DNA of 64,000 bases, taken from assembly GCA_963839205.1 (NCBI GenBank), contig CAWITU010000002.1, forward strand, positions 75,034 through 139,033. The letters are read 5' to 3'. This stretch comes from an uncultured bacterium (GTDB lineage: Bacteria; Patescibacteriota; Minisyncoccia; Phycocordibacterales; CAWITU01). The notes below the pieces were generated by a model. That model was not told the DNA's origin. It was given only the letters and a program-made list of their open reading frames with translations, and ran no database searches. The translations under genes were made by a program, and so were the position numbers. Below are positions 1,603 to 49,463 of the stretch, one piece after another (the stretch's first letter is position 1; each line of letters opens with the position of its first letter).

Positions 1603-1619
1603 TGGGAGAAATCATTGAA

Positions 1620-1741
1620 GTTGCAGAAGCAGAGGAGAACGTTGTCGTCATTCCAGTCATTCTCGAAATTGCCGAGGTTGAGGTTGAAATCACCGTCCGA
1701 GTTAGCGTTCACGTACGGCACCCTGTGGTAGCCGTCGAGGT
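1620..1741 (-). repeat. DGR-1 template repeat (TR1)
   Basis: 122-nt repeat matching 2108-2229. All 17 mismatches fall at minus-strand adenines of this copy. The minus-frame translation (ORF 1509-1721) is Asn/AAC-rich (SDGDFNLNLGNFENDWNDDNVLLCFCN). ORFs 1602-1844(+) and 1509-1721(-) are TR read-throughs, not genes. Confidence 0.8.
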
Positions 1742-2083: not shown

Positions 2084-2785
2084 CTACTTGCCCGCAGCGG
2101 GCTCGACGTCGCAGAAGCAGAGGAGAACGCCGCCGTCATCCCAGCCACTCTCGAAACCGCCGAGGCCGAGGTCGAAACCACCGCCCGAGTGAGCGCCCAC
2201 GTACGGCACCCTGTGGTAGCCGTCGAGGTCTGGGAGGCGATCCTTCTCATCGAAGGAGCAGTACCATTTGCCCTTGGGCAATTGGTCACGCTTTTGTTCC
2301 CAGACGAGTGTGGCCCCTTGAGCGCCGGTGTGAACGGCCTTCTGTGTGGCCAGGAAGGCCATACGTTCCTCCGAGGTGGTCCTGCCTGGCACAATCTGCT
2401 TGAAGGCGCGAACGTGGAGTCTGTCGCCGGGTTTCAGAACACGTGTCGGTTTCTTGAAGTTCTTGTCGGTGATGTCCGAGTTGTAGTAATAAAACTCCTT
2501 CTCGTGGTTCCGGCGAAACGTGTCGAGATGATCCTTGTGCACGTAGTCGTCGGGCACCGTGATAATGCCGAGATCCACGAGCAGGCCGAACTTTACCTTG
2601 GGATCAGGCGGATTTGCAGGCTTCGGTTTGCTGTCGCCGAAACGCGCTTCCCGGTCTTCCGTGGAGAGGTTATTGAAACGCTCCCACTGACCGAATGTGA
2701 TTTGACCGCTACGCACCTTTTGCAAGGTGTCAATTTGCAGACCAGCCAATTTGGCCGCATCCGCGTCGATGATTGATGTACTCAT
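2084..2785 (-). CDS. DGR-1 target protein with C-terminal variable region (CLec/FGE-like VR)
   Basis: 233 aa. C-terminus 'GYHRVPYVGAHSGGGFDLGLGGFESGWDDGGVLLCFCD' corresponds codon-for-codon to TR1 with Asn replaced by G/D/S. The gene is GC-rich (~58%) relative to its surroundings. No signal peptide. The antisense ORF 1964-2776(+) is judged spurious. Confidence 0.75.
   Translation of the reverse strand: MSTSIIDADAAKLAGLQIDTLQKVRSGQITFGQWERFNNLSTEDREARFGDSKPKPANPPDPKVKFGLLVDLGIITVPDDYVHKDHLDTFRRNHEKEFYYYNSDITDKNFKKPTRVLKPGDRLHVRAFKQIVPGRTTSEERMAFLATQKAVHTGAQGATLVWEQKRDQLPKGKWYCSFDEKDRLPDLDGYHRVPYVGAHSGGGFDLGLGGFESGWDDGGVLLCFCDVEPAAGK
2108..2229 (-). repeat. DGR-1 variable repeat (VR1)
   Basis: Cognate of TR1: 16 A-to-G and 1 A-to-C differences in the minus sense, all at TR adenines. 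The 3' ~45 nt are identical. A small GC hairpin (gccc/gggc) lies at 2090-2102 just 3' of the VR. Confidence 0.8.
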
Positions 2786-3160: not shown

Positions 3161-4240
3161 ATGGATAAGTTAAAACAAGGTTCTTTATCTGTTGGAAAAA
3201 TCAAAGCTAAAGATTTCAAGACTGCACCTCCGTTACCAACAATTGATATAGAAAATAGGCGCTATGTTGGAAGTAAAGCCAAGCTGCTTGATTGGATTTT
3301 TGAAAATATTAAGAAAGAGTGTAAGGGTAATAGTTTTCTTGATATATTTGCTGGGACAGGGGTTGTTTCTGCTAGAGCTGCTAAAGTGTACAACAAGATT
3401 ATCCTGAATGATCTTCTTCATTCGAATCACGCTGTTTATCAAGGTTTTTTCTCGCAAGAGAAATACAACAGAGAAAAAGTTTTTGATTTGGTGGCTTATT
3501 ATAATTCTCTTGTTTCGAGCAAGGTAGAACATACTTTTTTCTCACGTAATTATGGAGGTAAGTATTTCAGTATTGATTCAGCAAAATTAATCGGGTATAT
3601 CCGAAACGATTTAGATAATCGGAGGTGTCAATTGAACGATAAAGAGTATTATATACTTCTCACATCGCTTCTCTATTCTGCAGACAAGATCGCAAATACT
3701 GTAGGTCACTACGATGCTTTCTTCTCAAAGAGTGTCGTCGATAAAAAGTTCATCTTTCGCCTAATTGAACCCCTCATAAAAGCGGGGAAAGTTTCCATAT
3801 ACCGGGAGGACGCAAATATTCTTGCTCGAAAGATCAGTGCTGATGTTGTCTATATTGATCCACCCTACAATTCCCGACAGTACAGTCGTTTTTATCACGT
3901 ACTCGAAACCCTTACTCTTTGGGACGATCCAAAACTTACAGGAGTTGCTTTAAAACGACCAGAAGAAAACATGAGTGATTATTGTAAGAATAAAGCCGTT
4001 GTGGTTTTTGAGGATTTAATCAAGAATTTAAAAGCAAAATACATTGTCGTTTCTTACAACAATACATATAACTCAAAAAGTAGCTCATCTAGAAATAAGA
4101 TTGAACTTGAGGATATAAAACATATCCTAAATGCGAAGGGTAAGACAAAGGTTTTTAAAAAGAACCACCAATTTTTTAATGCCGGTAAAACAAATTTTAA
4201 CAATCATCAAGAATACCTTTTTATTACAAAAGTAAAATGA
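3161..4240 (+). CDS. N6-adenine DNA methyltransferase (Dam-like, alpha class), R-M MTase 1
   Basis: N-terminal 'RRYVGSKAKLLDWI', motif I 'DIFAGTGVVS' and motif IV 'DPPY' (IDPPYNSRQY) about 170 aa later. Stop codon TGA overlaps the next ATG (ATGA). Confidence 0.75.
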   Translation: MDKLKQGSLSVGKIKAKDFKTAPPLPTIDIENRRYVGSKAKLLDWIFENIKKECKGNSFLDIFAGTGVVSARAAKVYNKIILNDLLHSNHAVYQGFFSQEKYNREKVFDLVAYYNSLVSSKVEHTFFSRNYGGKYFSIDSAKLIGYIRNDLDNRRCQLNDKEYYILLTSLLYSADKIANTVGHYDAFFSKSVVDKKFIFRLIEPLIKAGKVSIYREDANILARKISADVVYIDPPYNSRQYSRFYHVLETLTLWDDPKLTGVALKRPEENMSDYCKNKAVVVFEDLIKNLKAKYIVVSYNNTYNSKSSSSRNKIELEDIKHILNAKGKTKVFKKNHQFFNAGKTNFNNHQEYLFITKVK

Positions 4241-5148
4241 GTTTAGAAATTCAGATTAAGCGCTCGCCATTCTTTTATGTTGGCGATAAATACAAACTCA
4301 TTGGGAAAATTAAAAAATATTTTCCAAAAGAAATAAACACTTTTGTAGAGCCATTTTTGGGAGGGGGGAGCGTTTTTTTAAACGTAGAAGCAAAACAATA
4401 TATTCTGAATGATGTAGACCAAAATGTTATCTTTTTACATAAATTTCTTGTAGGCCAGGCTGGTAAAGAAAAAACTCTTATAAAACAGATAAAAGTTTTG
4501 CTTAAACAGTATAATCTTTCCCGATCTGTTTTTGAAGATGTGGTACCTTATTCTCTTAAAAAAAAATGGCTTAAAACCTACTACGCCCATTTCAATAGGG
4601 AAGGGTATGCATCACTTAAAGAAAAATACAATAATAATAAAAATAAAGATCCGCTTTTGTTATATTTATTGTTAGTATACGGTTTTAATAGAATGCTTCG
4701 TTTCAATAAGCAGGGTAAATTTAATATTCCTGTAGGCAATGTGGATTTCAATAAAAATGTTTTGAGTGCTCTGCAAAGTTATTTTTCTACAGTAAAAGAC
4801 AGAAATATAAAATTTTATAGTAAGGACTTTAGGATATTTTTCAATAACCTTAAATTGAAGAAAGACGATTTTGTATATGTTGATCCTCCGTATCTAATAT
4901 CGGCCAGTGAGTATAATAAACTCTGGAATGAAAAACAGGATGTAGAGCTTATGGGGGCGCTTGATGATCTTAATGATTTAGGGATAAAATTCGCTGTATC
5001 TAATATTACTGCTTATAATGGCAGAGAGAATAAAAAATTGATATCCTGGATGAGGAATTACAATGTTCATTTGGTCGACAGTAACTATATAAGTTATCAT
5101 AACAATACCAAGAAAGAGATTAACGAGGTCTTAATCACAAATTACTAG
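4237..5148 (+). CDS. Dam-family (D12 class) N6-adenine DNA methyltransferase, R-M MTase 2
   Basis: 'FFYVGDKYKLIGKI', 'EPFLGGGSVFLNV' and 'VYVDPPYLISASEYNKLWNE'. Translationally coupled to both neighbours. Confidence 0.8.
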   Translation: MSLEIQIKRSPFFYVGDKYKLIGKIKKYFPKEINTFVEPFLGGGSVFLNVEAKQYILNDVDQNVIFLHKFLVGQAGKEKTLIKQIKVLLKQYNLSRSVFEDVVPYSLKKKWLKTYYAHFNREGYASLKEKYNNNKNKDPLLLYLLLVYGFNRMLRFNKQGKFNIPVGNVDFNKNVLSALQSYFSTVKDRNIKFYSKDFRIFFNNLKLKKDDFVYVDPPYLISASEYNKLWNEKQDVELMGALDDLNDLGIKFAVSNITAYNGRENKKLISWMRNYNVHLVDSNYISYHNNTKKEINEVLITNY

Positions 5149-5149
5149 C

Positions 5150-6688
5150 ATGCCCATTCGAAGAGAAAGCGAATACAAGCCACTTTTATTTACTACTACC
5201 GTTAGAAACCCTGAGAGATTTAAGGGCATGCTTGCTGTACTTAAAAATTATGACGAGGAAATTTTAACTAATGAGCTTGCAGAAGAGGTTGCTGGGGAGC
5301 TTATTAAGATTGGTATATATCGTCCAATGAAGGTCAGTAGGGAAGTTAAAGACAAGTGGGAGGAAGGACAACCTCTTTCTGCTGAAGATATTATAAAAAT
5401 TCTTCAAGATAATCCTCAGGACCATAAAGAAGCCGGATTTGATCACGGCTGGGTCTCAAGGTTTGATACATGGTTTAAATTAGCAAAAGAACTTGGATTT
5501 GTTTATTACGAGATGAATATTCCTATTGAGTTTTCAAAAATAGGCCTAAAACTTGCAGATACAGAACATCCAGAATTTGAACAGCAAGCATTCCTAAATG
5601 CATTTGCTAAGTATCAGCGCAATAACCCATTGCGGCGTGTTTCTAATGAGAACGTACCACTCATCTTACTTTTACAGGTGATCAAGAAAATCAATGATGA
5701 TCAAGATTTCAATGATGCAGGTATCACTAAACTTGAAGTACCTTTATTTTTAACCTGGCGAGATGATAATGCTGATGCGCTATATGAAAAGATAAAAGAG
5801 ATTCGCACGAGATTTGGATATGAACCAAGTTGGGAGGTCATTTTGAAAGAGGTGGATGAACTTACTGGAGGACGACATGCTTCTATGCCAGATAAGACAA
5901 TAATGGTTGAGTACGTAGATGATTTTTTAAGGAAGATGCGTTTAACTGGCCTCATTACAATACGTGGATTTGGGAGATTTATTGATCTAAATAAAAAGGA
6001 ATTAGCGAAGATAGATTATGTCTTAGAGACATATTCGAAGTATGAGAAGTATAGTAATGAAAAAGATTACTTTAAGTACATTTCCTCTATAGACGAGCAT
6101 TTGATCTCAATAGAACGAGTATATGAGACAAATGTTGTAGAAGAAAATAAACTATTGCAAAAGTGGGCAACTCATTTTAGCTGGGAAATTATTAAACGCG
6201 AGATTTTGAAATTAACTACTAGTAGTCCAACATCGACTGATGAAGTACTTTCCTTGATCCCTAGTCCTCTCAGGTTAGAGTTTTTAACATCTTTAGCTAT
6301 TTTAAATAAGATTCCAAGCGTAACTGTAAAACCAAATTATATATCTGATGATGAGGGATTGCCTTCCTCTCATGCTCCGGGTAATGGCGCAGATATTGAG
6401 TGTTGTGAAAAGGAAAAATATACCCTTCTGGAGGTAACGCTTTTAAATGGTGTTGTGCAGGTTCAGCGTGAGATGCCTCCGATAAGTAGACATCTGGAGG
6501 ACTTTAGAATTAAACATAAAGATGTCGTAACCCTTTTTATTGCCCCAGTTATTCATGAAGATACCAAACGCTGGGTTAGTTTTATAAAACACAAGGACGA
6601 TCTTGATATATACAACTTTTCTATCTCTGATTTTGTTAATAAATTAGATGGCGGTGTAGAAGAACTAAATATGTTAGCTAAGAGTTAG
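5150..6688 (+). CDS. Putative restriction endonuclease (possibly Type IIS-like) of the R-M cluster
   Basis: 512 aa with no recognisable housekeeping domain. Starts 2 nt after MTase 2 in the same operon. Called by gene context only. A possible catalytic region lies around 'GADIECCEKEKYTLLEVTLL'. Confidence 0.4.
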   Translation: MPIRRESEYKPLLFTTTVRNPERFKGMLAVLKNYDEEILTNELAEEVAGELIKIGIYRPMKVSREVKDKWEEGQPLSAEDIIKILQDNPQDHKEAGFDHGWVSRFDTWFKLAKELGFVYYEMNIPIEFSKIGLKLADTEHPEFEQQAFLNAFAKYQRNNPLRRVSNENVPLILLLQVIKKINDDQDFNDAGITKLEVPLFLTWRDDNADALYEKIKEIRTRFGYEPSWEVILKEVDELTGGRHASMPDKTIMVEYVDDFLRKMRLTGLITIRGFGRFIDLNKKELAKIDYVLETYSKYEKYSNEKDYFKYISSIDEHLISIERVYETNVVEENKLLQKWATHFSWEIIKREILKLTTSSPTSTDEVLSLIPSPLRLEFLTSLAILNKIPSVTVKPNYISDDEGLPSSHAPGNGADIECCEKEKYTLLEVTLLNGVVQVQREMPPISRHLEDFRIKHKDVVTLFIAPVIHEDTKRWVSFIKHKDDLDIYNFSISDFVNKLDGGVEELNMLAKS

Positions 6689-6823
6689 GCGCAGCTCTTA
6701 TATTGCGGTTATCCTGGCGAAAAACCATGTTTAAGACAGTCTCTGTATAAAATATGTTAAAAGAAAAACTGACGCTTTTAACGCCAGTGATGAGATTTTC
6801 TTTATTCTCAGGTCCGCGATCAG

Positions 6824-7096
6824 CTAAAAGAGCTTACTGCGTAGCCAGTCCCAAGTAGCTTGAGGCAACCAGCCACTGTAGCTATTTGTCAGGCGGACAA
6901 CCATGAGTAAGTCATTTTTGTGAATGTGACCAGCTAGACGATCCCAAACTTGTTGGGGCGTTAGGCTGGTTTGAATTAGCCAGTGGGAGGTAAGGGGATG
7001 GTTCCAGATACCGGAAACTTCCTTTATGGCCGCGTACAGGTTCGAGTAGTCCTTGCTGGCTTCTTCATGTAATTCGTATGTAATTAACAATACCAT
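6824..7096 (-). CDS. Hypothetical small protein (90 aa)
   Basis: ORF only. Three predicted beta-strand-like hydrophobic stretches; no family recognised. Divergent from the XRE gene. Confidence 0.3.
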   Translation of the reverse strand: MVLLITYELHEEASKDYSNLYAAIKEVSGIWNHPLTSHWLIQTSLTPQQVWDRLAGHIHKNDLLMVVRLTNSYSGWLPQATWDWLRSKLF

Positions 7097-7280
7097 ATGT
7101 TTTTGCTGCTTTGTGTTATTCCAGTTCCGTGATACTCTGTGATTACCACACCCCAGAGAGGTACTACCGACCCAGGATTCTCATCTCTCCTAACGCACCC
7201 TTTTCACTTACCAGAAGGCCGCTTAAAGTGCGGCGTATTTACATTGTAAATGCTTCTGGTTACAATACAACGTGACGAAT

Positions 7281-7316
7281 AATTACATATGTTCTTGTGG
7301 AGAACATATGTAATTC
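7281..7316. promoter_or_regulatory. Perfect inverted repeat (candidate operator) at the XRE gene start
   Basis: aattacatatgttc-ttgtgg-gaacatatgtaatt has 13-14-nt perfect arms. A second palindrome, atttaca-t-tgtaaat, lies at 7241-7255. Confidence 0.4.
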
Positions 7317-7719
7317 AGGGTTACGAGTTATAAACAGCTTTTCTTCAATGAAGAACAAAAAGCCCAAAACAAAAGTTATAATTGAACCAGAAATACTCAC
7401 CACCCCAGATGAGCAGATTCGAGGGTCTGTCGGTAGGAAGATAAAGCAAATAAGGGATGCCTGCTCACAAAGTGCCGAAAGAGTGGCCAAACGGATGGGA
7501 ATAAGTCGTGTTGCTCTGACCCATATAGAGAATGGGCATAACAATATAAATGCCGTCCAACTCTGGAAGCTTGCTTGTATCCTTGGTTGCGAGGTGGCTG
7601 ATTTTTTTCCTCCAATCCCAAAAGGATTTGCTCTCACTCACACGGATTATCAAAAAATTGCCCGCGAAGATGAGAGAGCGAAGGACTGGGCGCAGGAGCT
7701 TTTTGCAGATGAATTTTAG
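7297..7719 (+). CDS. XRE-family helix-turn-helix transcriptional regulator
   Basis: 'MGISRVALTHIENGHNNINAVQLWKLACILGCEVADFF' is a Cro/C1-type HTH. The coordinate is taken from the ORF track. Confidence 0.7.
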   Translation: MENICNSGLRVINSFSSMKNKKPKTKVIIEPEILTTPDEQIRGSVGRKIKQIRDACSQSAERVAKRMGISRVALTHIENGHNNINAVQLWKLACILGCEVADFFPPIPKGFALTHTDYQKIAREDERAKDWAQELFADEF

Positions 7720-8221
7720 TAAAAATATGAACAACGAGAAAATAGAAAAAATTGTTGAAAAATTGCAAGATAAATTAGGTATTAAAACTGCCCCAGTTCC
7801 GCTTGAAGATGTTGCAGAGAAGTTGGGGCTCAAGATTAAAAGGGCTCCCAGCGATGATTTCTCAGGTCTTTTGTTGAGGAAGGATGGGAGGGCCCTTATT
7901 GGTATTAATAGCAATGAATCTCATACCAGACAGCGGTTCACTGTTGCGCACGAGCTCGGTCATTATTTTCTTCATGATACGCAGGATGCTTTTGTCGATT
8001 ACAGAGATAATCAAGTAGGGGGAGTAAGAAGTTCAAGAGAAAGACAGGCTAATAGATTTGCAGCGGCGTTTTTGATGCCCCAAGCTATGTTAGCTGCGGA
8101 CGTAAAGAAGTTGTGTAAGAAGGGCATTTTCGATCCAGAGGTTGAAGCTTTGGCAAAGAAATACGATGTCAGCAAAGAAGCAATGAACTACAGAATTATA
8201 AATCTTGGTTTGTCGAAATAA
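7708..8221 (+). CDS. ImmA/IrrE-family zinc metallopeptidase
   Basis: HEXXH motif in 'FTVAHELGHYFLHD'. Immediately downstream of the XRE gene and overlapping it. Start chosen at the Met of 'MNFSKNMNNEK'; the track ORF 7550-8221 extends upstream in frame. Confidence 0.7.
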
Positions 8222-8440
8222 TTAGCATTCAAATTTTGATTTAGAGAGATACAAGAATTCAAAGAATTATTATTTACAGCTCGCAATCAATTGCAACTTC
8301 TCCCTTACCCCTGTCATATATTCCTGATCAGACAGTATGGTTATAATATCTGACCCCCTCTCACCCATCAATTTTTCTATCAAAAATACCCATGTTTTGA
8401 GGGGTATTTTCAGTTCTAATATTTTTGGTAAAATCAAGCT

Positions 8441-9031
8441 ATGAATAAAGACGATACCAATTTAGTCGAACAAGCAAAAGAAAATCCTCAACTTTTCGAG
8501 GAATTGTACCGAAAATATGCCGATAAGGTGTTTAATTACTTTTGGTATCGCACTGGCCATGACAAGATGCTTGCTGAAGACTTCATGCAAGATACATTTG
8601 TGCGAGCTTTCAAGCATCTTAAAAAGTTCAATGTTCGTGGGTATTCATATCTCACATATCTTTTGACTATTGCTCGCCATATACTTATCGACCATTACAG
8701 AAAACCTGCATCGGTCCCCGTTGAAGATGTTGAAGATGTGCCATTTGAAATTACTCAGGACATAGATAAAAAGTCTGACGGTGAAGCTCTTTGGCACGCT
8801 GTCCAGACATTACCAGCTTCTAATCGAGATGTACTTCTCATGCACTATCAGCAGGACATGCCTATTAAGGCAATCTCTAAAGTTACAGGGGCATCCGAAA
8901 ATGCAGTCAAGCTCAACCTCTCACGTACGAGAAAAAGACTGGCTTCGCATCCATATCTCAGAGACATTCGAGATTTCGCTGATACAAAGCGCAAATATAC
9001 CAGACCTCGATTTATGAAAAAGAAGGCATGA
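8441..9031 (+). CDS. ECF-type RNA polymerase sigma-70 family factor
   Basis: Region 2 ('FNYFWYRTGHDKMLAEDFMQDTFVRAF') and region 4 HTH ('MPIKAISKVTGASENAVKLNLSRTRKRL'). Confidence 0.75.
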   Translation: MNKDDTNLVEQAKENPQLFEELYRKYADKVFNYFWYRTGHDKMLAEDFMQDTFVRAFKHLKKFNVRGYSYLTYLLTIARHILIDHYRKPASVPVEDVEDVPFEITQDIDKKSDGEALWHAVQTLPASNRDVLLMHYQQDMPIKAISKVTGASENAVKLNLSRTRKRLASHPYLRDIRDFADTKRKYTRPRFMKKKA

Positions 9032-9381
9032 CACCTTTTCACACCTTGCCCGTTTAATATAGTGTAAAAGGTCAGGCGGAGTGGTCGAACGCTGGAGAAT
9101 TAAAAATTGGACGTAACCATATGATTTCAATCAATCAAATGAGACGTATTTTTAGGCTTAGAGATTATATCCGTTCAATATCTGATGCCACTTAAACGTC
9201 TCTCTAAGCATACACAGCTAAATATATTTTGTTTGCCTTAAACTCGGACACCGAGTAAAAGTATCACCACTATGATACTACAAGTTGATAAGGCCAAAGC
9301 CCAAGAGGCACTTGCCTCGGGCTCTTGGCGTAGATAATGAACATAGTAAGGTCGAATTACAAACCAATAAAATAAAATAAA

Positions 9382-9891
9382 TTGTTTATGCCGAATATCA
9401 CCAAAAAAGAAAGCAGAGATATACAGCCGTATGATGAGAAAGGTTCGTCTCCGTTGTTCCTAATTAACCGATTTTTCGACGATAGCCTCTGGGACCCATT
9501 CAATATTATGACACCAACTCTTATGGGTTCCCGAACGCTTGGTGGTACATCGAGCAGGTTTCCCAGAGTAGATGTTTCCGAGACTGACAAGGAAATAAAG
9601 GTTGTTGCCAATATACCAGGCATAGACCCAGACAAGGTTGATATTGAAGTCGGCGATGACTACCTTTCGCTCTCTGGAAAAGTCGAAAAAGAAGTTAAGG
9701 ATGAGGATAAGAAGGGTACAGTCTATCGTTATGAACGTGAGTACGGGGAGTTCAGGCGCGAGTTCTCCCTTCCAGCGAGGGTCAATAAGAATGCGATAGT
9801 GGCGAAAGCGAAGAATGGTGTACTAACTCTCACGTTGCCTAAGATGGACGACGAACGCAAGACAAAGGTTAAAGTTGAAGTAGAAAAGTAG
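9382..9891 (+). CDS. Hsp20/alpha-crystallin small heat-shock protein
   Basis: ACD motifs 'VDVSETDKEIKVVANIPGIDPDKVDIEV', 'GEFRREFSLP' and 'GVLTLTLPK'. Confidence 0.85.
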   Translation: MFMPNITKKESRDIQPYDEKGSSPLFLINRFFDDSLWDPFNIMTPTLMGSRTLGGTSSRFPRVDVSETDKEIKVVANIPGIDPDKVDIEVGDDYLSLSGKVEKEVKDEDKKGTVYRYEREYGEFRREFSLPARVNKNAIVAKAKNGVLTLTLPKMDDERKTKVKVEVEK

Positions 9892-9938
9892 CTTATCGCG
9901 CAGGTCGTCATTATTAGAGCTAATCGGTTGTCAAAAAT

Positions 9939-10319
9939 ATGAAAATAATCTCACTAAAACAAAACGCTATTGCGTGTTCCCTGTTGACAGCCGCTTTTAT
10001 GATAATTGCGGCAGGGATAGTACATGCTCAAACAGCGTCTTCAAGTCCGTATGTAACAACATCTACAACGCCAGATGGGGGCGTAAGTGTTAATATGGAT
10101 TTGCCAAACAACTTTAAGGGACAGGTCTATACTGTATATAAGGATGGAAAATGGCAGACCTTTTCTACCACAACACCCTTAACGAGTTCGGATGTTGCTT
10201 CAATGCAAAAAGAGATACAAGACCAAGAGAAAGCCATGCAAGAAATGTTTGCCGCACAGCAAAAATTATTTGAGCAAGAACAGCAAATGTTTCAAAATAT
10301 GTGGGGTAGTTTGTGGTAA
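9939..10319 (+). CDS. Secreted hypothetical protein with Gln-rich C-terminus
   Basis: N-terminal signal peptide (LLTAAFMIIAAGIVHAQ). No domain recognised. Confidence 0.35.
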   Translation: MKIISLKQNAIACSLLTAAFMIIAAGIVHAQTASSSPYVTTSTTPDGGVSVNMDLPNNFKGQVYTVYKDGKWQTFSTTTPLTSSDVASMQKEIQDQEKAMQEMFAAQQKLFEQEQQMFQNMWGSLW

Positions 10320-10490
10320 TCATTAATCTAGAAGAAAGACACCCGAAAGGGTGTTTTTCATATAGTGAGTTGAGGAGTATGGTAAAAAATAGGAATGTAG
10401 ATAGTAGCGTCATTTTTCCTCTCAAAAATAGTTCTAACATCCTCTACGACGGCACCCCTAAAGAGAATCAGATTTTGCTATACTTAACGA

Positions 10491-11111
10491 ATGGAACAAG
10501 AAAATAAACCCAGGATAACTTTTAAAGAAATTTTTAAGAAAATTTGGCCCCACACTCGGTACAATCGAAGCTTACGTATCCTAATAAGTACGAACACGAC
10601 GATGAACTTCGTAGTAGGTTTGTTTGCACCATTTTATGCAGTGTATGTTGTGAAAATTGGAGGGAGTGTCGCACTCGCTGGTATTAGTTGGGCACTTTTC
10701 TCAATTGTTGCTGGTGTTTTAACTTTACTTTTTTCTAGTTGGGAATTAGAAATAAAAGAGCAGGAATTACTGATAGCCTCAAGCTATTTGTTAAAAGTTG
10801 TCGTCTTTATAAGTTACGCTTTCATGTCTAGTATCCCTCAATTATTTCTAACACAAATTATTTGGGGTGTTTCCTCTGCGCTGAATAACCCCGCCTTTGA
10901 TGCTTTGTATACTACTCATACTAGTAAGGATTCTCTAATTGGTGAATGGGGAGGCTGGGAGGGAATTAGTGCAATATCTACTGGTTTAGCAGCGCTCATT
11001 GGAGGTATTGCTATTGAGATAATAGGGTATCAAAGTATTTTTATTGTGATGGCATTGATTTCATTAGGTCTTTGTATTTATATTTGGCGCCTACCTAGAG
11101 AAGTACTATGA
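10491..11111 (+). CDS. Hypothetical integral membrane protein
   Basis: Several predicted TM helices. Overlaps the ATPase start by 4 nt. Confidence 0.35.
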   Translation: MEQENKPRITFKEIFKKIWPHTRYNRSLRILISTNTTMNFVVGLFAPFYAVYVVKIGGSVALAGISWALFSIVAGVLTLLFSSWELEIKEQELLIASSYLLKVVVFISYAFMSSIPQLFLTQIIWGVSSALNNPAFDALYTTHTSKDSLIGEWGGWEGISAISTGLAALIGGIAIEIIGYQSIFIVMALISLGLCIYIWRLPREVL

Positions 11112-40272: not shown

Positions 40273-40440
40273 TTTTTTCCTATTTTTAATTATCCCCAGA
40301 AATTATGGGTATACAATTTTTCTTCCTGTAATCTATGATATTATTAAAGATAAATGAAACATATTCTCAATCTTAGTTCAAAAAAAGAACCAGAGGTCGT
40401 TATCGTTGAAAAAATCATCCTTAAAAAAAGAAGTTTTTTT

Positions 40441-41133
40441 ATGGAGACACTTCGGGTTATCTTGGCAGTTGTTATTGTTTCGGGAACAATATGGGGGGTT
40501 TCTTTTGCTGGTTCTCTCATCCCCCCATCTGGCACCCCATCTAAAACCATGTACACCTTAGATGATATTTATACCCTTGTTACTACTGGCACTACTACGC
40601 CTTCTACAAATTTCACAACTCCCGGATCAGCAACATCAACATTTCACACACTAACAGATATTGTGAATGCTTACCATGTACCAAGTACAACTTCTAATCC
40701 AAATTCTATAGGTCCGTTTGTTTCCGACGGTCAGCCAGACAATGGCTATCTTGATCAGAACACTGGCCTTATTTGGGAAAATACTGATGCGGGACAATAT
40801 CTCTGCTGGGATGGAAACCAAGGTTGTGGACCAATACAAGCCGTGGAGTACTGTCAGTATCTTGATGCCGATGGTGTAACTGTGGATGGTACACCTCAGA
40901 ATATTTGGAGACTACCCACGATTAAAGAATGGGAGTCGGTGTTAGATTACAGTAACGATGCATATAATACATACGGTGTTGCGACCGCGTTGCCGAACAC
41001 TCCCAACGCCTACTATTGGTCGAGTACTGAGTATGCACCCAGCAACTTCTACGCTTGGGTCGTCGGCACCGTCGGTGGTAGTCTGGACGTCTACAACGAG
41101 AACGGCTACGCCCTTGCTCGATGCGTCCGCTAG
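40441..41133 (+). CDS. DGR-2 target protein: secreted DUF1566 (Lcl/TvpA-like CLec fold) protein with C-terminal VR
   Basis: Signal peptide 'METLRVILAVVIVSGTIWGVSFA'. DUF1566 motifs 'TGLIWENTDA', 'WRLPTIKEWESVL' and 'YWSSTEYAP...ALARCVR'. The last ~38 codons equal TR2 except at TR adenines. The track ORF starts upstream at 40354. Confidence 0.85.
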   Translation: METLRVILAVVIVSGTIWGVSFAGSLIPPSGTPSKTMYTLDDIYTLVTTGTTTPSTNFTTPGSATSTFHTLTDIVNAYHVPSTTSNPNSIGPFVSDGQPDNGYLDQNTGLIWENTDAGQYLCWDGNQGCGPIQAVEYCQYLDADGVTVDGTPQNIWRLPTIKEWESVLDYSNDAYNTYGVATALPNTPNAYYWSSTEYAPSNFYAWVVGTVGGSLDVYNENGYALARCVR

Positions 41134-41142
41134 AATTCCTGC
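41000..41142 (+). repeat. DGR-2 variable repeat (VR2)
   Basis: Aligns with 41703-41845 at an offset of 703 nt. About 22 substitutions, all at TR adenines; A to G, T and C all occur. The 3' ~35 nt are identical, including the stop codon. Confidence 0.9.
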
Positions 41143-41164
41143 ATTCTTTGATTCTTTTCTTCTT

Positions 41165-41186
41165 CCGCGCACAAACCTGTGCGCGG
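41165..41186 (+). promoter_or_regulatory. GC-rich stem-loop downstream of VR2 (DGR target-recognition hairpin)
   Basis: ccgcgcaca-aacc-tgtgcgcgg, a 9-bp stem, 23 nt after VR2. No counterpart after TR2. Confidence 0.6.
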
Positions 41187-41208
41187 TGGCTGATGGGACT
41201 TAATCAAT

Positions 41209-41568
41209 ATGTCACAGTACCTTCATTTACCAATATATAATGCAGCCTTTGTCTTTCTGAAAGAACTCAATATGAGGGTACCGAAGTTTGCCAAGCAGTA
41301 TAAATATTTTCTTGGCGGACGGTTGATTGAATACAACGTTGACATAATTCGGTTAATTATTGAAGCGAACAATTGTCGGGATATGTCTCAAAGGGCAATA
41401 GTGCTAGCAAAGCTTTCCGAAAAAATAGAGCTTCTTATACTACATTCTCGGATAGCTGAAGAGCTTGAACAGTGGGGGAATAAGAAAGGGTATTTGTTTT
41501 TGGTCGAAAAATTAGCAGATCTTTCAAAACAAGCCGAGGGTTGGAGAAAATCTTCCCGGAGTTTTTAA
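41209..41568 (+). CDS. Avd accessory variability determinant (DGR-2)
   Basis: 119 aa. 'LPIYNAAFVFLKELNMRVPKFAKQYKYFLGGRLIEYNVDIIRLIIEAN' is the typical Avd N-terminal helix pattern. Basic C-terminus. Confidence 0.75.
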   Translation: MSQYLHLPIYNAAFVFLKELNMRVPKFAKQYKYFLGGRLIEYNVDIIRLIIEANNCRDMSQRAIVLAKLSEKIELLILHSRIAEELEQWGNKKGYLFLVEKLADLSKQAEGWRKSSRSF

Positions 41569-41702
41569 TCTTAGATTGAAAAGTGTGGAATAAGGAATTC
41601 AGTCTCTGCTCTTCACTTTTCCAGACAATTGTTTGAGAAGGTGGAGAATAAATGTACCTGAAGGTCACGGAAAGTCAGAGACTTCATTAATGTGTCATAC
41701 TT

Positions 41703-41845
41703 CTCCCAACGACAACTATTGGTCGAGTACTGAGTATGCACCCAACAACAACAACGCTTGGAACGTCAACACCAACAATGGTAGTCTGAACAACAACAAC
41801 AAGAACAACAACAACCTTGCTCGATGCGTCCGCTAGCATTCCTGC
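41703..41845 (+). repeat. DGR-2 template repeat (TR2)
   Basis: AAC/AAT-rich; translation 'YWSSTEYAPNNNNAWNVNTNNGSLNNNNKNNNNLARCVR'. Sense strand is the same as the RT. ORF 41633-41836 is a TR read-through, not a gene. Confidence 0.9.
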
Positions 41846-41874
41846 TCCTACCCTCGGCTTATTTTGAATAATCT

Positions 41875-43047
41875 ATGAGTACTATTTTTACATTAGAAAA
41901 AATATGGAATGCCTATGAAGATTGCCGGAAGCGTAAAAAGAATACAGTTAATGCCCTGAAATTTGAGCTTAATCGTGAGAAAAATCTTGTAAAACTTTTG
42001 TATGATCTAAAATCTCGCCGTTATAAAATTTCTCGGCATATCTGTTTTATTGTTACAGTTCCTACGCCACGAGAAATATTTGCTGCGGATTTTCGAGACA
42101 GGATCGTTCACCATCTTTTGTATAGAGAGCTATATGAAATGATTGATGTTGATTTGATTGCTGATTCATATGCTAATCGACGGGGTAAGGGAACCCATTC
42201 TGCTGTGTCTCGTCTTAGTAAATATATTAAGGAGATCAAAAGTGAGACGGGTGGAGGATTTTATCTTAAGCTTGATGTCCAGAGTTTTTTTCGTTCTATA
42301 GATAGAAGTATTTTATTTAAAATTTTAGAGGACAAATTATTAAAAAAAGTTTCAGGTTATGTGTTTAATTCCAATCACGACGACGTGTGGTTACAAGAGG
42401 TGTTTTGGCTTTTGAAGGAGATCATTTTTAATGATCCGACACTAAACTTTATTTATAAAGGAAATCCAGCTTTACAAAAACTCATTCCCCCGAATAAGTC
42501 ACTGTTTTATTCGGGGGGACGAGGATTACCTATCGGAAATTTGACTAGTCAATTTTTTGCTAATGTTTATCTTAATGAACTTGATCAATTCATTACAAAA
42601 AAACTTGGCTTCAGTAAATATCTTCGCTACGTTGACGATTTTGTTATTGTTTCCGACGACAAGGAAAAGTTACGCTCGTCAATAAAACCGATTGATGATT
42701 TTATACGTCAGCGTCTCAATCTTAAAATCCATCCCCATAAGATTTGTCTTCAGTCAGTTTCCTTGGGTATAGATTATTTGGGATATTTTATAAAGCCAAC
42801 ACATAGTGTAATAAGGCAAAAAGTTGTTAGTAGGTTTAAAAACAAATTATATAAAATATCGCACAAAGAGAGTTTGTTGCGCGATCAAGTTGAGCAAATT
42901 TTACCTATGATTAATTCATATTACGGACATTTTAGTCATGCCAGTAGTCACAACTTACGTGTTGCTCTCTATAAAGAACATATGTTAAAATTAAAGGAGA
43001 GAATCGTTTTTGATGATAAATATAATAGTGCTAGTTTAAAAAAATAA
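41875..43047 (+). CDS. DGR-type reverse transcriptase (DGR-2)
   Basis: 'LPIGNLTSQFFANVYLNELD' (DGR IGxxxSQ signature), 'YLRYVDDFVIVSDD' and fingers motifs 'FRDRIVHHLLY' and 'RRGKGTHSAV'. Confidence 0.9.
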   Translation: MSTIFTLEKIWNAYEDCRKRKKNTVNALKFELNREKNLVKLLYDLKSRRYKISRHICFIVTVPTPREIFAADFRDRIVHHLLYRELYEMIDVDLIADSYANRRGKGTHSAVSRLSKYIKEIKSETGGGFYLKLDVQSFFRSIDRSILFKILEDKLLKKVSGYVFNSNHDDVWLQEVFWLLKEIIFNDPTLNFIYKGNPALQKLIPPNKSLFYSGGRGLPIGNLTSQFFANVYLNELDQFITKKLGFSKYLRYVDDFVIVSDDKEKLRSSIKPIDDFIRQRLNLKIHPHKICLQSVSLGIDYLGYFIKPTHSVIRQKVVSRFKNKLYKISHKESLLRDQVEQILPMINSYYGHFSHASSHNLRVALYKEHMLKLKERIVFDDKYNSASLKK

Positions 43048-43096: not shown

Positions 43097-43855
43097 ATGA
43101 AAAAAAAGCCAATAGTATTTTTAATAACGATCGCAGTGGTAATCTCTTTTGTGGGATTTGCTGGGTCTTCTTTAGTTGCAAAAGCTGCAGATAAAACATC
43201 ACGTCCCATTGTTGGAGTAGTTACAGGAATTAATGGCACAACGCTTACAGTGGTCACAAGAAACAATGCTACTTACAGCGTAGATGCAGATAACGCCGAT
43301 GTTGTTACGGGTTTTTTAGGTTTTTGGGCAAAACCTTCTTCTTTTTCTAATATTCAAGTCACAGACACTCTTACTGTGAAAGGAGATGTTAGTGGTTCTT
43401 CAATTATTGCTATTGATATTGCCGACAATAAGACACCAAGTAATGCTCTTTCTGAAGAATCTTTAAAGCCTTCTCCTACTGATGCCACTTCGACTCAAAC
43501 AAATTCTGATACGCAAAATTTGAATGAGCAAGCCTCATCTACCAATTCAGATGCTTCATCAACGATCCTAGATACCCTTCAAGGGATTGTAAATAATGTA
43601 GTAGCAGGTGTGTTTAGTGGCACATCTATAGGAACTTCAACTACGGTTGACGTAACATCTACTTCAACAAATTATACAGATTCGAATCAGCAAGCAGATG
43701 CAAGCACTACAGCGACAACAACTTCAATTGTAGATACAGTGATTAATACCATTTCAAATACAGTTCAGAGCGTTGTTAATGCTGTCACTGGTGGAGCAAG
43801 TACCACTGATAGCACTAATTCAAGTGATGCCTCAGCTTCAAGTACAGATCAATAA
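43097..43855 (+). CDS. Secreted Ser/Thr-rich hypothetical protein
   Basis: Signal peptide 'MKKKPIVFLITIAVVISFVGFAGSSLVAKA'. Low-complexity S/T-rich C-terminus. Confidence 0.4.
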   Translation: MKKKPIVFLITIAVVISFVGFAGSSLVAKAADKTSRPIVGVVTGINGTTLTVVTRNNATYSVDADNADVVTGFLGFWAKPSSFSNIQVTDTLTVKGDVSGSSIIAIDIADNKTPSNALSEESLKPSPTDATSTQTNSDTQNLNEQASSTNSDASSTILDTLQGIVNNVVAGVFSGTSIGTSTTVDVTSTSTNYTDSNQQADASTTATTTSIVDTVINTISNTVQSVVNAVTGGASTTDSTNSSDASASSTDQ

Positions 43856-43924
43856 TCGAATTTACACTTTCCCACATATTTGGAGTAGTAAAATATGGTA
43901 TCTGTGTTAAAATCTATAATATAA

Positions 43925-46900
43925 ATGGACAAAAATTTCTCTGGAAATAAAAAATTATTTAACGGAAGTTTTATTTTCGTCATTTTTTTTGTGTTATTTG
44001 CTTGTGCAATTGTTTTACAAACTACGGGTGTATTTGCATCAACGTCAACAGCACCTATTGATTCAGAGTATCATTATGCATGGGGAGAAAATGTCGGTTG
44101 GATAGATTTCTCAAATGTAAATGTAGACTATGCTTCCACGACTCTTAGTGGCTACGCTTACGGTGAAAATATTGGCTTTATTTCTTTGAACTGTAAAAAT
44201 ACTGATTCTTGTGCATCCAATAATTACGCTGTCACCAATGATAATTATGCGGGGGTACTTGGTGGATATGCTTGGGGAGAAAATGTCGGTTGGATTGATT
44301 TCTCAAATGTAACCTTTTCTACGAGCACTGGAGTTTTCAGTGGCTACGCATACGGTGAAAATATTGGAAATATTATATTTGGCACGAGCACTAATAAGGT
44401 CGTTGTTGATTGGGTGCCACCACTTGCAACAAGCACTCCAGTGACATCTTGCGGGACGATTGTATACCCCGGAACATATACTCTAGGTTCTGACATCACT
44501 GATAATTCTACTTCGACCGCATGTTTTACTGTCCTCACCGACAACGTAATCATCAATGGCCTTGACCCTATTGATAACACAACAATTCACACTGTCACAG
44601 GTAATGGAAGTGATTATGGTGTAGATGCAGAGGGGATTGATTCTGGTGCAGACGGACATTCAGTTACTGTAGAAAATATTTCATTGAATAATTTTAGTAA
44701 TGGAATCAGCACGAATGCAAATAGTAGTGGAAACGGAAATGGGGGTTCTCTCACTGTTACGAATGCTACAATTATCGGTGCTGTTTCTGCAAGCGGGTCT
44801 GGTTCTGGCCAAAGTGGTACTGTTTTAATAAACAACTCCAATATCACTGTTCCAAATGGTTCATCGTGGACACTGAATGACGGGGGTACTGGCAACATTT
44901 GGATATTTAATGGTAATAGTTTTAATACTGGAACTATTCATGGTACGGCTAAATTTTATAGCACTTCTCAAATGCAATCTGGATCGGCTGATACCTGTAA
45001 TTTTTATGAAGCAAGTAGTATAACAGGTGGTACTTGTGGCACGATTAACTTACTGCAACCATATTATTTTGATCCTACATCAGATTCGTTATGGAGTAAT
45101 CCATCCAACTGGTATTGGAAGAGCGGTAGTGCTACTAGTACAGTTCCAGACACAGCATCAAGTACTCCGCAGACTCAAGATACGGTTTATTTAGGTGGAA
45201 CTCCAACTAGTACCCCTAATACCATTTTAGCTACTATCTATGTCGCAACATCTACACCAAATACTGGTGATATTGCCGTAGATCTTACAAATCTCACTGG
45301 CCCAAACACAGTCACAAACTTTTACAACGGACACAGTGTCGGTAATATTCAAGGAACAATTAACCTTTACAATAATCTTTCACTTTCAAGTGTCAAAGGG
45401 ACGGGTACCCTTGATCCTAATATCATCATTAACTTTTATGACACCTCACATAACGATGTCTCCAATGTATCGGGAACGTTGAATTTTTATGGTCACAGTT
45501 ATAATTCATCAAACGGTAGCGCTGTAAATACTCCAAATTTTTACGATTCTAGTTATAATCAAAATACCCTTCAATCAGCTGTTTTTGGTGATGAAAGTAA
45601 TAATACTGGCACAACCACAAATGCGATTTTTAATGGAACTTCCACGAATTCTGGGTCAGTTGGTGTTGCTACATTTAATGATAATAGCAACAACACTGGT
45701 AGTGTAGGGCAAGCCACTTTTAATAATAGTTCCTACAATATCGGTACATCCACTATTGCCACTTTCGTCGGTGATCTTTCGGAAAATTTTTACCAATCTA
45801 TTAATGGCTCTGTTTCTGGAGTAAAGACTCGTCTATATACGAATTTAGCTCCGCAGGTTAATTTACTCAGATCTTTTGTTGATTCGGCTTGGACGATTGT
45901 CGCAGATAATACACTAGTTAAGTTACTCTTTAGAAATCTAATCGATATATTTGGAAGAAATGCAAATACTACGACAACATTGGTTGAACAAAATGGCGGT
46001 GTAATTCTTCGTCCATTAGCTCCAGGTATTATTTCATCTTGCGGAGTTCTTGATACAGAAAATGGGACATATACCCTCGATACATCTACGGATGCTCAAA
46101 ATTATTTCTTCAATTACAAATATGACACTTGTTTCATTGTCCGTGCCAATGGTGTAACTATCAATGGTGCGAATATGACAGTGAGAACTAGCTCAAATAG
46201 TTCATCTTCAATTGCTGTTCTTGCCACATCGACGCCTTCACAAGATGGCACTTATAATGCTTTTACAAACCTTACTATAAATAACATTAGATTTGCAGGA
46301 TTTGCATACGCAGCAAACGCAGATGGTACGGATAACCCAAGTGGTGCGGGAGGTAATGGAGGAGTTGTCTCATTTGCCACTTCAACATTAAATGCAAACA
46401 TTCTTGCTGATGGTGGAAATGGAAGTGCAGACGGTGGCAATGGTGGTTCTATATCCATTGTTAACGTCAACACTAGAGGCTTTACTGCGTCAACAACACT
46501 TTCTGTAAATGGAGGTAACAGTACTTCGTGTGGAAATGGTGGTAATGCTGGGACAGTCAACACTTTCCATTCCTCATATAACATAGTCTCCGTGCTTGCA
46601 GGTAATGGATCAAATTCCGGTTGCCCAGGCAATTCTTCGGCAGGACAGGCTGGTTCTTCTGGTGGTGGACATGTAGACGTGGGTGGAAGTAACGGCTCTA
46701 GTGATGATCCAGGAGCAGCTCCTGCGCCATCATCTCCTAGCTCTCCATCATCTCCAATTTCTTATGGTGGCGGTGGTGGCTCCATTTCACTCACTCCTTC
46801 TACTACCTTTGGTGGTGGCTCTCTACCAGTCGTAACCCTTCCAGTTAATATCCTGACCCCACTTCACCTCAAAGCTTTACCAACCTTCGGTTCCACTCCA

Positions 46901-47494
46901 ACCTCCTTCAACTTCTTACCATTAGTGTCTTCGTATCTTTTTGCACCAATTCCAAATCCTCTGGGAGCAGCACTTGTCAAAGATATTTCACTTTCAAAAT
47001 TCATCGCGACTCTCGGAATTAGTAATGCTCAAAGCTTAGCCGTTCTTCAAATCAATCCAGTTAAGCTTCCAAAAACCATAACCACATTGCCTCCAGGATT
47101 GTTCATGGTCACAGCGGGAGATAAGGCGGTTATTACGAGCCTTGTTGCCAATAAAAAGTATCAGTTAGTAGAGTCAGTAACCGTTTCTCCAGGTACCACA
47201 CTAGGAGTGTCTATCATTCCTCAAAATAGCTCGAAGATTACTGCTTCATTTCATAATGCAAAAGTATCATTCGTTCCTGTTAAAACTGGTCCTAAATCAG
47301 AGGTCACTGCAACAATTGTCTCTCCAAATGTGGCTGGAACATATTACCTCACATCCAATGCTTCACCGCTTACCGTTGCCATCAATGTAGTTTTGCCACC
47401 AAAGGTTATAGTTAAACCAACACCGGCTCCGTCGGTGGGGATAACAAGCGTTTTGAATTGGCTTAATTCAGTGGTAAAATTGTTTAAATGGTGA
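43925..47494 (+). CDS. Giant secreted repeat protein (1189 aa; putative adhesin/surface protein)
   Basis: N-terminal TM/signal. Duplicated 'GYAWGENVGWIDFSNV...SGYAYGENIG' module (nt 44075-44400). Gly/Asn/Ser-rich beta-solenoid-like middle region and Pro-rich linker. Confidence 0.5.
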   Translation: MDKNFSGNKKLFNGSFIFVIFFVLFACAIVLQTTGVFASTSTAPIDSEYHYAWGENVGWIDFSNVNVDYASTTLSGYAYGENIGFISLNCKNTDSCASNNYAVTNDNYAGVLGGYAWGENVGWIDFSNVTFSTSTGVFSGYAYGENIGNIIFGTSTNKVVVDWVPPLATSTPVTSCGTIVYPGTYTLGSDITDNSTSTACFTVLTDNVIINGLDPIDNTTIHTVTGNGSDYGVDAEGIDSGADGHSVTVENISLNNFSNGISTNANSSGNGNGGSLTVTNATIIGAVSASGSGSGQSGTVLINNSNITVPNGSSWTLNDGGTGNIWIFNGNSFNTGTIHGTAKFYSTSQMQSGSADTCNFYEASSITGGTCGTINLLQPYYFDPTSDSLWSNPSNWYWKSGSATSTVPDTASSTPQTQDTVYLGGTPTSTPNTILATIYVATSTPNTGDIAVDLTNLTGPNTVTNFYNGHSVGNIQGTINLYNNLSLSSVKGTGTLDPNIIINFYDTSHNDVSNVSGTLNFYGHSYNSSNGSAVNTPNFYDSSYNQNTLQSAVFGDESNNTGTTTNAIFNGTSTNSGSVGVATFNDNSNNTGSVGQATFNNSSYNIGTSTIATFVGDLSENFYQSINGSVSGVKTRLYTNLAPQVNLLRSFVDSAWTIVADNTLVKLLFRNLIDIFGRNANTTTTLVEQNGGVILRPLAPGIISSCGVLDTENGTYTLDTSTDAQNYFFNYKYDTCFIVRANGVTINGANMTVRTSSNSSSSIAVLATSTPSQDGTYNAFTNLTINNIRFAGFAYAANADGTDNPSGAGGNGGVVSFATSTLNANILADGGNGSADGGNGGSISIVNVNTRGFTASTTLSVNGGNSTSCGNGGNAGTVNTFHSSYNIVSVLAGNGSNSGCPGNSSAGQAGSSGGGHVDVGGSNGSSDDPGAAPAPSSPSSPSSPISYGGGGGSISLTPSTTFGGGSLPVVTLPVNILTPLHLKALPTFGSTPTSFNFLPLVSSYLFAPIPNPLGAALVKDISLSKFIATLGISNAQSLAVLQINPVKLPKTITTLPPGLFMVTAGDKAVITSLVANKKYQLVESVTVSPGTTLGVSIIPQNSSKITASFHNAKVSFVPVKTGPKSEVTATIVSPNVAGTYYLTSNASPLTVAINVVLPPKVIVKPTPAPSVGITSVLNWLNSVVKLFKW

Positions 47495-49430: not shown

Positions 49431-49463
49431 AAGAGGGCGGCCCAAAGGGCCGCCCTCTTTTCT
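49431..49463. terminator. Strong intrinsic terminator after rplK
   Basis: aaaagagggcggccc-aaag-ggccgccctctttt. rplA is not present downstream. Confidence 0.8.

Follow-up and report, generated by a model that had tools for sequence, protein, structure and literature searches.

A probable chromosomal diversity-generating retroelement with an Lcl_C-domain target on a Patescibacteria-associated contig

Does the cassette found around position 41,000 of a 64-kb stretch of contig CAWITU010000002.1 rewrite the end of one of its own genes, and if so, with what machinery and on which protein? An earlier note on this stretch (called the window hereafter, at its full length of 64 kb) had proposed a complete diversity-generating retroelement (DGR), here DGR-2, in which a reverse transcriptase (RT) copies a template repeat (TR) into a variable repeat (VR) at the end of a gene for a secreted or surface protein of the DUF1566 family. 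To our knowledge, no prokaryotic systems other than DGRs are known to hypermutate a chosen protein surface deliberately. In this report, we examined the repeats of DGR-2, its genes, the RNA that it may encode, its relatives and its surroundings. Every hallmark of a DGR that a sequence can reveal was found, and we hold the locus to be, with high probability, a DGR. It is a chromosomal and cellular DGR of the Patescibacteria-associated, or candidate phyla radiation (CPR), type, that is, an already well-known kind of system, and it changes nothing about DGRs as such.

Repeats that differ at template adenines

The two repeats lie where the earlier note had placed them and have the length of 143 nt that it gave (Table 1). 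They align without gaps at an offset of 703 and are 83% identical. Twenty-five positions differ, and 24 of these fall on adenines of the TR, so that nearly half of its adenines are changed in VR (24 of 50; Fisher's exact test for A versus non-A positions over the whole repeat, p = 2e-12). At these sites the substitution from TR to VR is to G in 13 cases, to T in nine and to C in two. The sole mismatch at another base opposes C41837 of TR to A41134 of VR, one base past the TAG stop codon. Within the 134 bases of coding overlap, 24 of the 49 A positions differ and none of the 85 non-A positions does. The note had counted about 22 differences and assigned every one of them to a TR adenine; this is exact for the coding part (24 of 24) and too strict for the repeat as a whole, where the mismatches number 25 and one of them is of the non-adenine kind that the note had listed as a sign against a DGR. 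The remaining claim about the repeats, an identical 3' end that runs through the stop codon, was confirmed: the 22 bases at 41112-41133 are the same in both copies.

The differences are also distributed in a particular way with respect to codons. All 24 adenine-site changes occupy position 1 or 2 of AAC, AAT, GAC or AAG codons; together they alter 16 codons, and no stop codon is created. Adenines occur in 24 codons of TR, 22 of which are AAC or AAT, and its translation reads NNNNAWNVNTNNGSLNNNNKNNNN (in a longer extract, ...NNNNAWNVNTNNGSLNNNNKNNNNLARCVR). VR itself provides the final 44 codons of the target open reading frame (ORF). Both strands of the window were scanned for further matches to the non-A positions of TR, and no further copy was found. 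Because none of the 85 non-A coding positions has diverged, the last homing event appears to be recent relative to neutral drift, with TR and VR held in register.

TR lies in an ORF (41633-41836) that looks like the final part of the target. Three RT homologue entries (P0012, P0047 and P0052) have both RVT_1 and Lcl_C Pfam matches; we suspect that gene callers merged the TR reading frame with the RT ORF in these cases.

Genes of the cassette and their relatives

The order of the cassette (target, the accessory gene avd, TR and RT) and the limits of avd and RT are those that the note had given. The RT carries the IGNLTSQ motif reported there, which aligns to IGSLTSQ of PDB entry 8ub7 and fits the DGR motif-4 signature [I/L/V]GxxxSQ. 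Chain A of this entry, a 328-aa protein annotated 'Reverse transcriptase', is the best PDB relative of the RT (E 2.3e-43, 152 bits), more than 100 bits ahead of the best group II intron RT (40 bits). From its length, and from a cryo-EM study of bRT-Avd-RNA (bioRxiv 10.1101/2023.10.23.563531), we take 8ub7 to be the Bordetella phage enzyme bRT. About 40 extra residues (about 156-213) precede IGNLTSQ, beyond the stretch that aligns to 8ub7 residues 12-159; this insertion is missing from the 8ub7 RT and from the RT of a second DGR in the window, DGR-1, described below.

As to the avd-like gene (avd standing for accessory variability determinant), its sub-threshold matches to Pfam bAvd and NCBIfam DivGenRetAVD (scores below) are both full-length, the latter covering positions 1-104 of 104. 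When the ORF was aligned with its positional orthologues from related loci and with the Avd of DGR-1, 15 of the 16 sequences matched Pfam bAvd, the best at 8e-15. A PDB search with the Avd sequence alone gave no match; the profile of the alignment matches 2gsc, a Xanthomonas protein annotated only as 'Putative uncharacterized protein XCC0516', and did not match the Bordetella Avd entries of the PDB.

Relatives were collected by a scan for RT homologues, restricted to one genome per species, which gave 80 loci with 38-70% RT identity, mostly from metagenome-assembled genomes (MAGs) of Patescibacteria; one more, L081 (RT 84% identical), was added through an exact-protein look-up, for a total of 81. 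In 52 of the 81, a simple repeat finder picked up a TR/VR pair with an A bias. The nearest RT relatives belong to MAGs of Paceibacterota and other Patescibacteria. The closest are L081, L001 (70%) and L002-L005 (57-60%), the last four being labeled Paceibacterota or Patescibacteria and, in one case, Gammaproteobacteria. The order target-avd-TR-RT is kept in L081, in L001-L005 and in three further loci, L163-L165. In the closest relatives TR lies 8-40 nt from the RT start, and the gap between avd and TR measures 116-149 nt.

Comparison with L081 bears directly on the extent of the target. The note had started this gene at the ATG at 40441; the 12 residues VIVEKIILKKRS encoded upstream of that codon recur without change in the homologue of L081, where Ser stands in place of the Met. 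This ATG is therefore more likely to be internal, and the target probably starts at 40354. The longer start places a hydrophobic helix (residues 28-49, nt 40435-40500) behind a charged N-terminus of 27 residues, followed by a conserved Thr/Ser-rich linker. The C-terminal domain is assigned to Lcl_C (PF07603, formerly DUF1566) at residues 133-259, nt 40750-41130 (1.6e-20, 73.9 bits against a cut-off of 34.9). A PDB search with the single sequence gave no match. An AlphaFold model built with 45 homologues has block-mean predicted local distance difference test (pLDDT) values of 78-94 across residues 131-259, and one long helix is predicted at residues 28-49. Searched against the PDB with Foldseek, the model matches best 8q4e, the C-terminal domain of Legionella Lcl (E 6.9e-5); most of the lower-ranking ones, at E 0.06 and above, are C-type lectin-like domains. 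The DUF1566 domain with a C-type-lectin-like fold that had been claimed for the target is thus retained, at the level of a model for the fold, and the signal peptide claimed with it is unproven: given the longer start, it is better described as an N-terminal membrane helix, cleaved or not, and the predicted helix could equally be a membrane anchor, a signal anchor that is not cleaved or a signal peptide.

L164 (ENA ERZ4201038) and L165 (GCA_037140595.1) come from separate sources, and their RT is 71% identical to that of DGR-2. They differ at 26 of 5771 bases; 25 of these differences lie in VR, 24 of which are at TR adenines. This comparison of assemblies demonstrates activity in that relative. 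In line with this, six clusters of target homologues (cluster identity 90%; 65-70% identity to the target) vary mostly at VR positions templated by Asn codons; two of them vary solely at such positions, in 18 of 18 variable columns (the P0128 cluster) and 13 of 13. One member of the P0128 cluster, P0183, has a nearly unmutated, TR-like VR (...NTNNAWNVNTNDGNVNNNNKNNNNLVRCVR), which could stem from weakly mutagenic homing or from an assembly that put TR sequence in the place of VR. The third locus of the group, L163, equals L164 in its flanks and VR and is L001-like across avd, the spacer and the 5' half of TR (L163 positions 3380-3900), and its called avd is shortened to 98 aa. Hypervariation of avd was considered for this locus and rejected in favor of a chimera of L001-like and L164-like sequence, which arose either by recombination between two DGR lineages or by co-assembly, and the locus was set aside.

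Candidate homing signals and RNA structure

In known DGRs, two versions of the initiation of mutagenic homing sequence, IMH and IMH*, are distinguished (PMC5758913). The 3' end of the repeats in DGR-2 has a comparable organization: after the GC-rich TGCGTCCGC come TAG and one base that is A in VR and C in TR. The same difference right after the stop codon recurs in L081, L001 and L163-L165 (TAG-A-ATTCC versus TAG-C-ATTCC). Since this base difference has outlasted repeated overwriting of VR in several lineages, it must lie outside the transferred segment, as expected of IMH versus IMH*. On the strength of this conserved discriminating base, 41112-41142 is read here as an IMH-like end, and information transfer should reach its 3' limit somewhere between 41111 and 41134. 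The A41134/C41837 pair looks like the IMH/IMH* marker that tells recipient from donor.

Beyond VR, the GC-rich inverted repeat reported earlier was found as described, with a perfect 9-bp stem, after VR and not after TR, where nothing similar follows. It reads CCGCGCACA-AACC-TGTGCGCGG, starts 22 nt past the end of the VR/TR homology and is one of no more than six distinct hairpins of such quality that the window contains. By analogy with phage DGRs it is plausibly a hairpin or cruciform element for target recognition, a role that is weighed below against that of a terminator.

The spacer between avd and TR is 134 nt long and conserved among the closest relatives. RNAalifold, applied to 7 and then to 9 sequences, predicts three helices in and around it, P1, P2 and P3, of which P1 encloses the other two together with TR (Table 1). 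In P1, 93.5% of cells are paired and three pairs switch from GC to AU on both sides. The 7-sequence alignment has 96% of its cells paired, a share that falls to 43-63% once the 3' partners are shifted, and 7 of its pairs are changed in both strands. For P2 and P3, a model-based alignment of 10 sequences, itself fitted to the model, gives 98.5% paired cells (38-51% after shifting) and 8 such doubly changed pairs; all these sequences represent only two or three sub-lineages, that is, few independent events. L083 has a shorter hairpin in place of the P3 arm. Among 161 related loci, a covariance model of the element, R1, locates it solely upstream of TR in relatives with at least 53% RT identity, and does not find it in more distant DGRs; either the element is confined to this RT subclade or the model is too shallow.

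In Bordetella, the DGR RNA needs a duplex, the 'cPRT Stop', between a segment upstream of TR (avd) and the downstream spacer (Sp), and such duplexes have been predicted for 207 of 278 DGRs (Handa et al., bioRxiv 10.1101/2023.10.23.563531). P1 would most simply be the counterpart of this avd:Sp duplex. The same study describes, downstream of the Bordetella TR, a structured spacer of 140 nt that carries the priming adenosine (Sp A56). It is conceivable, if rather unlikely in our estimation, that in the RT subclade at and above about 53% identity the RNA is arranged unlike that of Bordetella, with the P2/P3 module placed 5' of TR and inside P1. If this were true, and if the 5' spacer supplied the binding of RT and Avd as well as priming, the cis-priming geometry would differ from the Sp A56 model.

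Two other candidates were rejected. An inverted repeat at 41879-41891/41933-41945 was considered as a conserved structure and, as we read alignment A5, is not kept in L003. The spacer motif GGAATTC pairs perfectly with the VR version of the IMH end (GAATTCC) and mismatches the TR version; it was dismissed as a guide of the RNA to VR, as L002-L005 keep GGGAATTC while their VR flanks diverge.

Together, these elements allow a mechanism to be proposed. The avd-TR-RT region would be transcribed, and the TR RNA would be held in a structured RNA by the P2/P3 stem-loops of the spacer and the long-range helix P1. A complex of RT and Avd would bind this RNA. Reverse transcription may then begin within the GC-rich IMH*-like end, random bases being misincorporated where the template has adenines, and the mutagenized cDNA would take the place of VR in the 3'-terminal part of the target gene. 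The IMH-like end (A41134 versus C41837) would set the direction of transfer, perhaps together with the GC hairpin found after VR only. As AAY codons of TR can become codons for many amino acids and never a stop, we propose that a presumed ligand-binding face of the target, a membrane-anchored or secreted protein, would be made hypervariable on a fixed scaffold.

Table 1. Positions in the window of the features of DGR-2, followed by those of DGR-1 and its neighbors
Feature	Position	Strand	Basis and remarks
Target gene, 259 aa	40354-41133	+	ORF (probable start); charged N-terminus, hydrophobic helix, Thr/Ser-rich linker, C-terminal Lcl_C/DUF1566
VR	41000-41142	+	Diversified part 41009-41111, invariant 3' part 41112-41142
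IMH-like 3' end of VR	41112-41142	+	Identical to TR through the stop; GC-rich core TGCGTCCGC; VR-specific A41134
GC-rich inverted repeat	41165-41186		Stem 41165-41173/41178-41186, perfect 9 bp, loop AACC
avd-like gene, 119 aa	41209-41568	+	Pfam bAvd, NCBIfam DivGenRetAVD, positional orthologues
Structured RNA element, avd-TR spacer	41579-41686	+	Predicted: RNAalifold, covariation, covariance model R1
Helix P1	41583-41596 with 41840-41851	+	RNAalifold; encloses P2/P3 and TR; 3' strand (12 nt) overlaps and follows the TR end
Helix P2	41601-41609 with 41674-41683	+	RNAalifold
Helix P3	41610-41614 with 41644-41648	+	RNAalifold
TR	41703-41845	+	Rich in AAC (Asn codon), 50 A in 143 nt, IMH*-like C41837
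DGR RT, 390 aa	41875-43047	+	IGNLTSQ, YVDD; Pfam RVT_1 6e-20
DGR-1 RT	232-1209	-	LGNLTSQ; 31% identical to DGR-2 RT
DGR-1 Avd	1198-1602	+	Divergent from RT; bAvd 50 bits, over cut-off
DGR-1 TR	1617-1741	-	Repeat pair with VR
DGR-1 VR	2105-2229	-	3' end of ORF 2084-2785 (-)
D12-class N6-adenine methyltransferase match	3161-4240		Beside DGR-1
AlwI-family endonuclease match	5150-6688		Beside DGR-1

Alternative explanations, genomic setting and known systems

Several observations weigh against the interpretation of the locus as a working DGR. The Avd ORF scores under the cut-offs of both of its families (Pfam bAvd 5.6e-6, 27 bits, cut-off 40; NCBIfam DivGenRetAVD 29.5 bits, E 7e-7, cut-off 80). 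The RT and the target of DGR-2 each form a cluster with a single member, so that its present activity is something we infer. A search of the TR 3' flank and of the initial 125 nt of the RT gene for conserved structure or a priming duplex returned essentially nothing (-2 kcal/mol); with TR only 29 nt from the RT start, a counterpart of the Bordetella downstream spacer and priming adenosine was therefore not located, and no Avd-binding stem-loop was recognized. As for the hairpin, its loop, AACC, departs from the GRNA consensus of phage DGR hairpins, and no comparable hairpin follows VR in L081 and L002-L005. These last features, together with the occurrence of a perfect GC hairpin after VR in only 6 of 32 related loci and with a position in the gap from the target gene to avd, 32 nt beyond the stop codon, speak for a hairpin that only terminates transcription of the target gene and has no part in retrohoming. 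We consider this possible, on balance unlikely. A T-run is missing on both strands, in contrast to the canonical terminators of the same window at 49435 and 52649; the L001 and L165 lineages carry an imperfect GC hairpin at the equivalent place, so that a survey of perfect stems under-counts; and the absences in L081 and L002-L005 agree with the published frequency, inverted repeats of this sort being present in 34%, or about a third, of DGRs (PMC5758913). Phage DGR hairpins have a stem of 7-10 bp and a 4-nt GRNA loop and lie 4-34 bp from VR (PMC3240598), and the stem (9 bp), loop length (4 nt) and distance (22 nt) found here are all inside these ranges. The likeness to the Bordetella homing hairpin that the note had drawn covers size, loop length and distance and leaves out the loop sequence; as L081 has no hairpin, the role remains putative.

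Alternatively, the DGR might be structurally complete and now silent or decaying, its VR/TR differences recording past homing only. The only independent assembly of the locus leaves room for this. Exact-protein look-ups of the RT (the window sequence and P0001) returned no indexed contig, and that of Avd returned only L162, a Logan contig of 972 nt (ERR10755936) that is 100% identical to 41122-42093 and stops short of the variable part of VR. However, the first base of L162 is the one next to 41121, which is a synonymous CGA site and the final coding position with a TR adenine as its template; its break may mark a graph branch at a heterogeneous A-site and so give a weak hint of VR heterogeneity in the ERR10755936 sample, many other causes being possible. 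Against silence also stand the intact state of all three ORFs, the AAC-rich design that TR retains, the lack of drift at non-A coding positions, the conserved flanking RNA structure and the activity of the relative described above, and we judge a silent copy quite improbable. Hardly conceivable, in our view, is a further alternative, in which the RT is that of a different type of retroelement (group II intron, retron or defense-associated reverse transcriptase, DRT) and the repeats are an ordinary partial gene duplication. NCBIfam and PADLOC models of group II, retron and DRT/UG enzymes do match the RT below threshold, as expected for any prokaryotic RT, but the scores are far under the cut-offs (97.6 bits against 300 for the group II model TIGR04416, 54 against 235 for retron_St85, and likewise for Drt2, Drt3a, Drt4 and Drt5). 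An Rfam scan of the whole window at gathering thresholds had no match, including none to a group II intron or retron RNA. The neighbors of the RT are avd, TR and the target rather than effectors, the 8ub7 enzyme is its best solved relative, and a plain duplication would not restrict 24 of 25 differences to the adenines of one copy. The DGR assignment that the note had given to the RT is upheld by these results, and the locus is best taken as a DGR.

The setting of this DGR is chromosomal. The window encodes a P-type ATPase, a lactate permease, ZnuA, a dihydroorotate dehydrogenase, a fragment of an aminoacyl-tRNA synthetase and a restriction-modification system; a tRNA scan of the whole window found none. 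A pilin-like protein and a SIMPL protein adjoin DGR-2, and no phage genes do. The relatives closest to the RT in phylogenetic terms suggest Patescibacteria as the host lineage. The GC content is 36-42% over most of the window, in 4-kb blocks, and 43.5% in the first 4 kb. Directly 3' of the RT, the region 43097-47494 encodes a Ser/Thr-rich protein of 252 aa and a protein of 1189 aa with an N-terminal hydrophobic segment, neither of which has a Pfam match. The larger protein contains internal repeats of the type YAWGENVGWIDFSNV (44075-44120 and 44267-44312). A block made of target, avd, RT and proteins of about 200, about 1180 and about 125 aa is syntenic in L081 (downstream part at 6201-10648) and in the contig of P0003, with different genes upstream; the large downstream protein of L081 is 70% identical to the 1189-aa protein.

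A second, unrelated DGR, DGR-1, occupies positions 232-2785 of the window, 40 kb from DGR-2 on the same contig. Seventeen of its 18 VR/TR mismatches are at TR adenines, and 16 of these 17 are A-to-G changes, an unusually one-sided spectrum. Its target ORF has no Pfam or PDB match. A restriction-modification cluster (3161-6688) lies beside it, with an ORF at 4237-5148 between the methyltransferase and endonuclease ORFs.

Among characterized systems, the prototype is the DGR of Bordetella phage BPP-1 (mtd-avd-TR-brt). DGR-2 and this prototype have the same gene order and TR/VR differences that are specific to adenines; in both, VR closes the gene of a lectin-like target, the GC-rich IMH-like end carries bases that tell VR from TR, and a GC hairpin whose loop has 4 nt follows VR and not TR. 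The [I/L/V]GxxxSQ motif of the RT and a (here predicted) duplex that joins the sequences flanking TR are common to them as well. The two differ in that BPP-1 is phage-borne and diversifies the tail-fiber protein Mtd, whereas DGR-2 is chromosomal, probably in a Patescibacteria cell, and has as its target an Lcl_C/DUF1566 protein whose N-terminal part contains a predicted membrane helix. Furthermore, the structured spacer of 140 nt lies downstream of TR in BPP-1, whereas in DGR-2 the structured spacer of 134 nt lies upstream and 29 nt separate TR from the RT; the hairpin loop is AACC rather than GRNA, and the RT has the insertion of about 40 aa. Closer in its target is the DGR of Legionella pneumophila (LdtA; CLec2/DUF1566 category 'd', Wu et al. 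2018, PMC5758913), a cellular and chromosomal element with a surface-exposed target whose VR lies in a DUF1566-type domain ending in ...RCVR, as in DGR-2. LdtA is described as an outer-membrane-anchored lipoprotein, whereas the DGR-2 target has a predicted transmembrane or signal-anchor helix, with no lipobox recognized, and the host lineages differ. Finally, the RT relatives suggest that DGR-2 belongs to the cellular, Patescibacteria/CPR-restricted clade 2 of Roux et al. (2021, PMC8144416), with which it shares a cell-encoded location, Patescibacteria RT relatives and the presence of two DGRs on one small-genome contig. CPR DGR targets usually lack a recognizable transmembrane or conserved domain (PMC8144416); with its predicted membrane helix and Pfam Lcl_C domain, the DGR-2 target is slightly atypical in this respect.

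About 31,000 DGRs have been catalogued (quoted in bioRxiv 10.1101/2023.10.23.563531). DGR-2 provides an annotated case for comparing the architecture of DGR RNAs and for read-level tests of activity, and its compact cassette of 2.7 kb may possibly serve in engineering. Genome-reduced Patescibacteria rely on attachment to other cells, and for such bacteria a hypervariable lectin-like surface protein would be a plausible tool for the recognition of hosts or partners.

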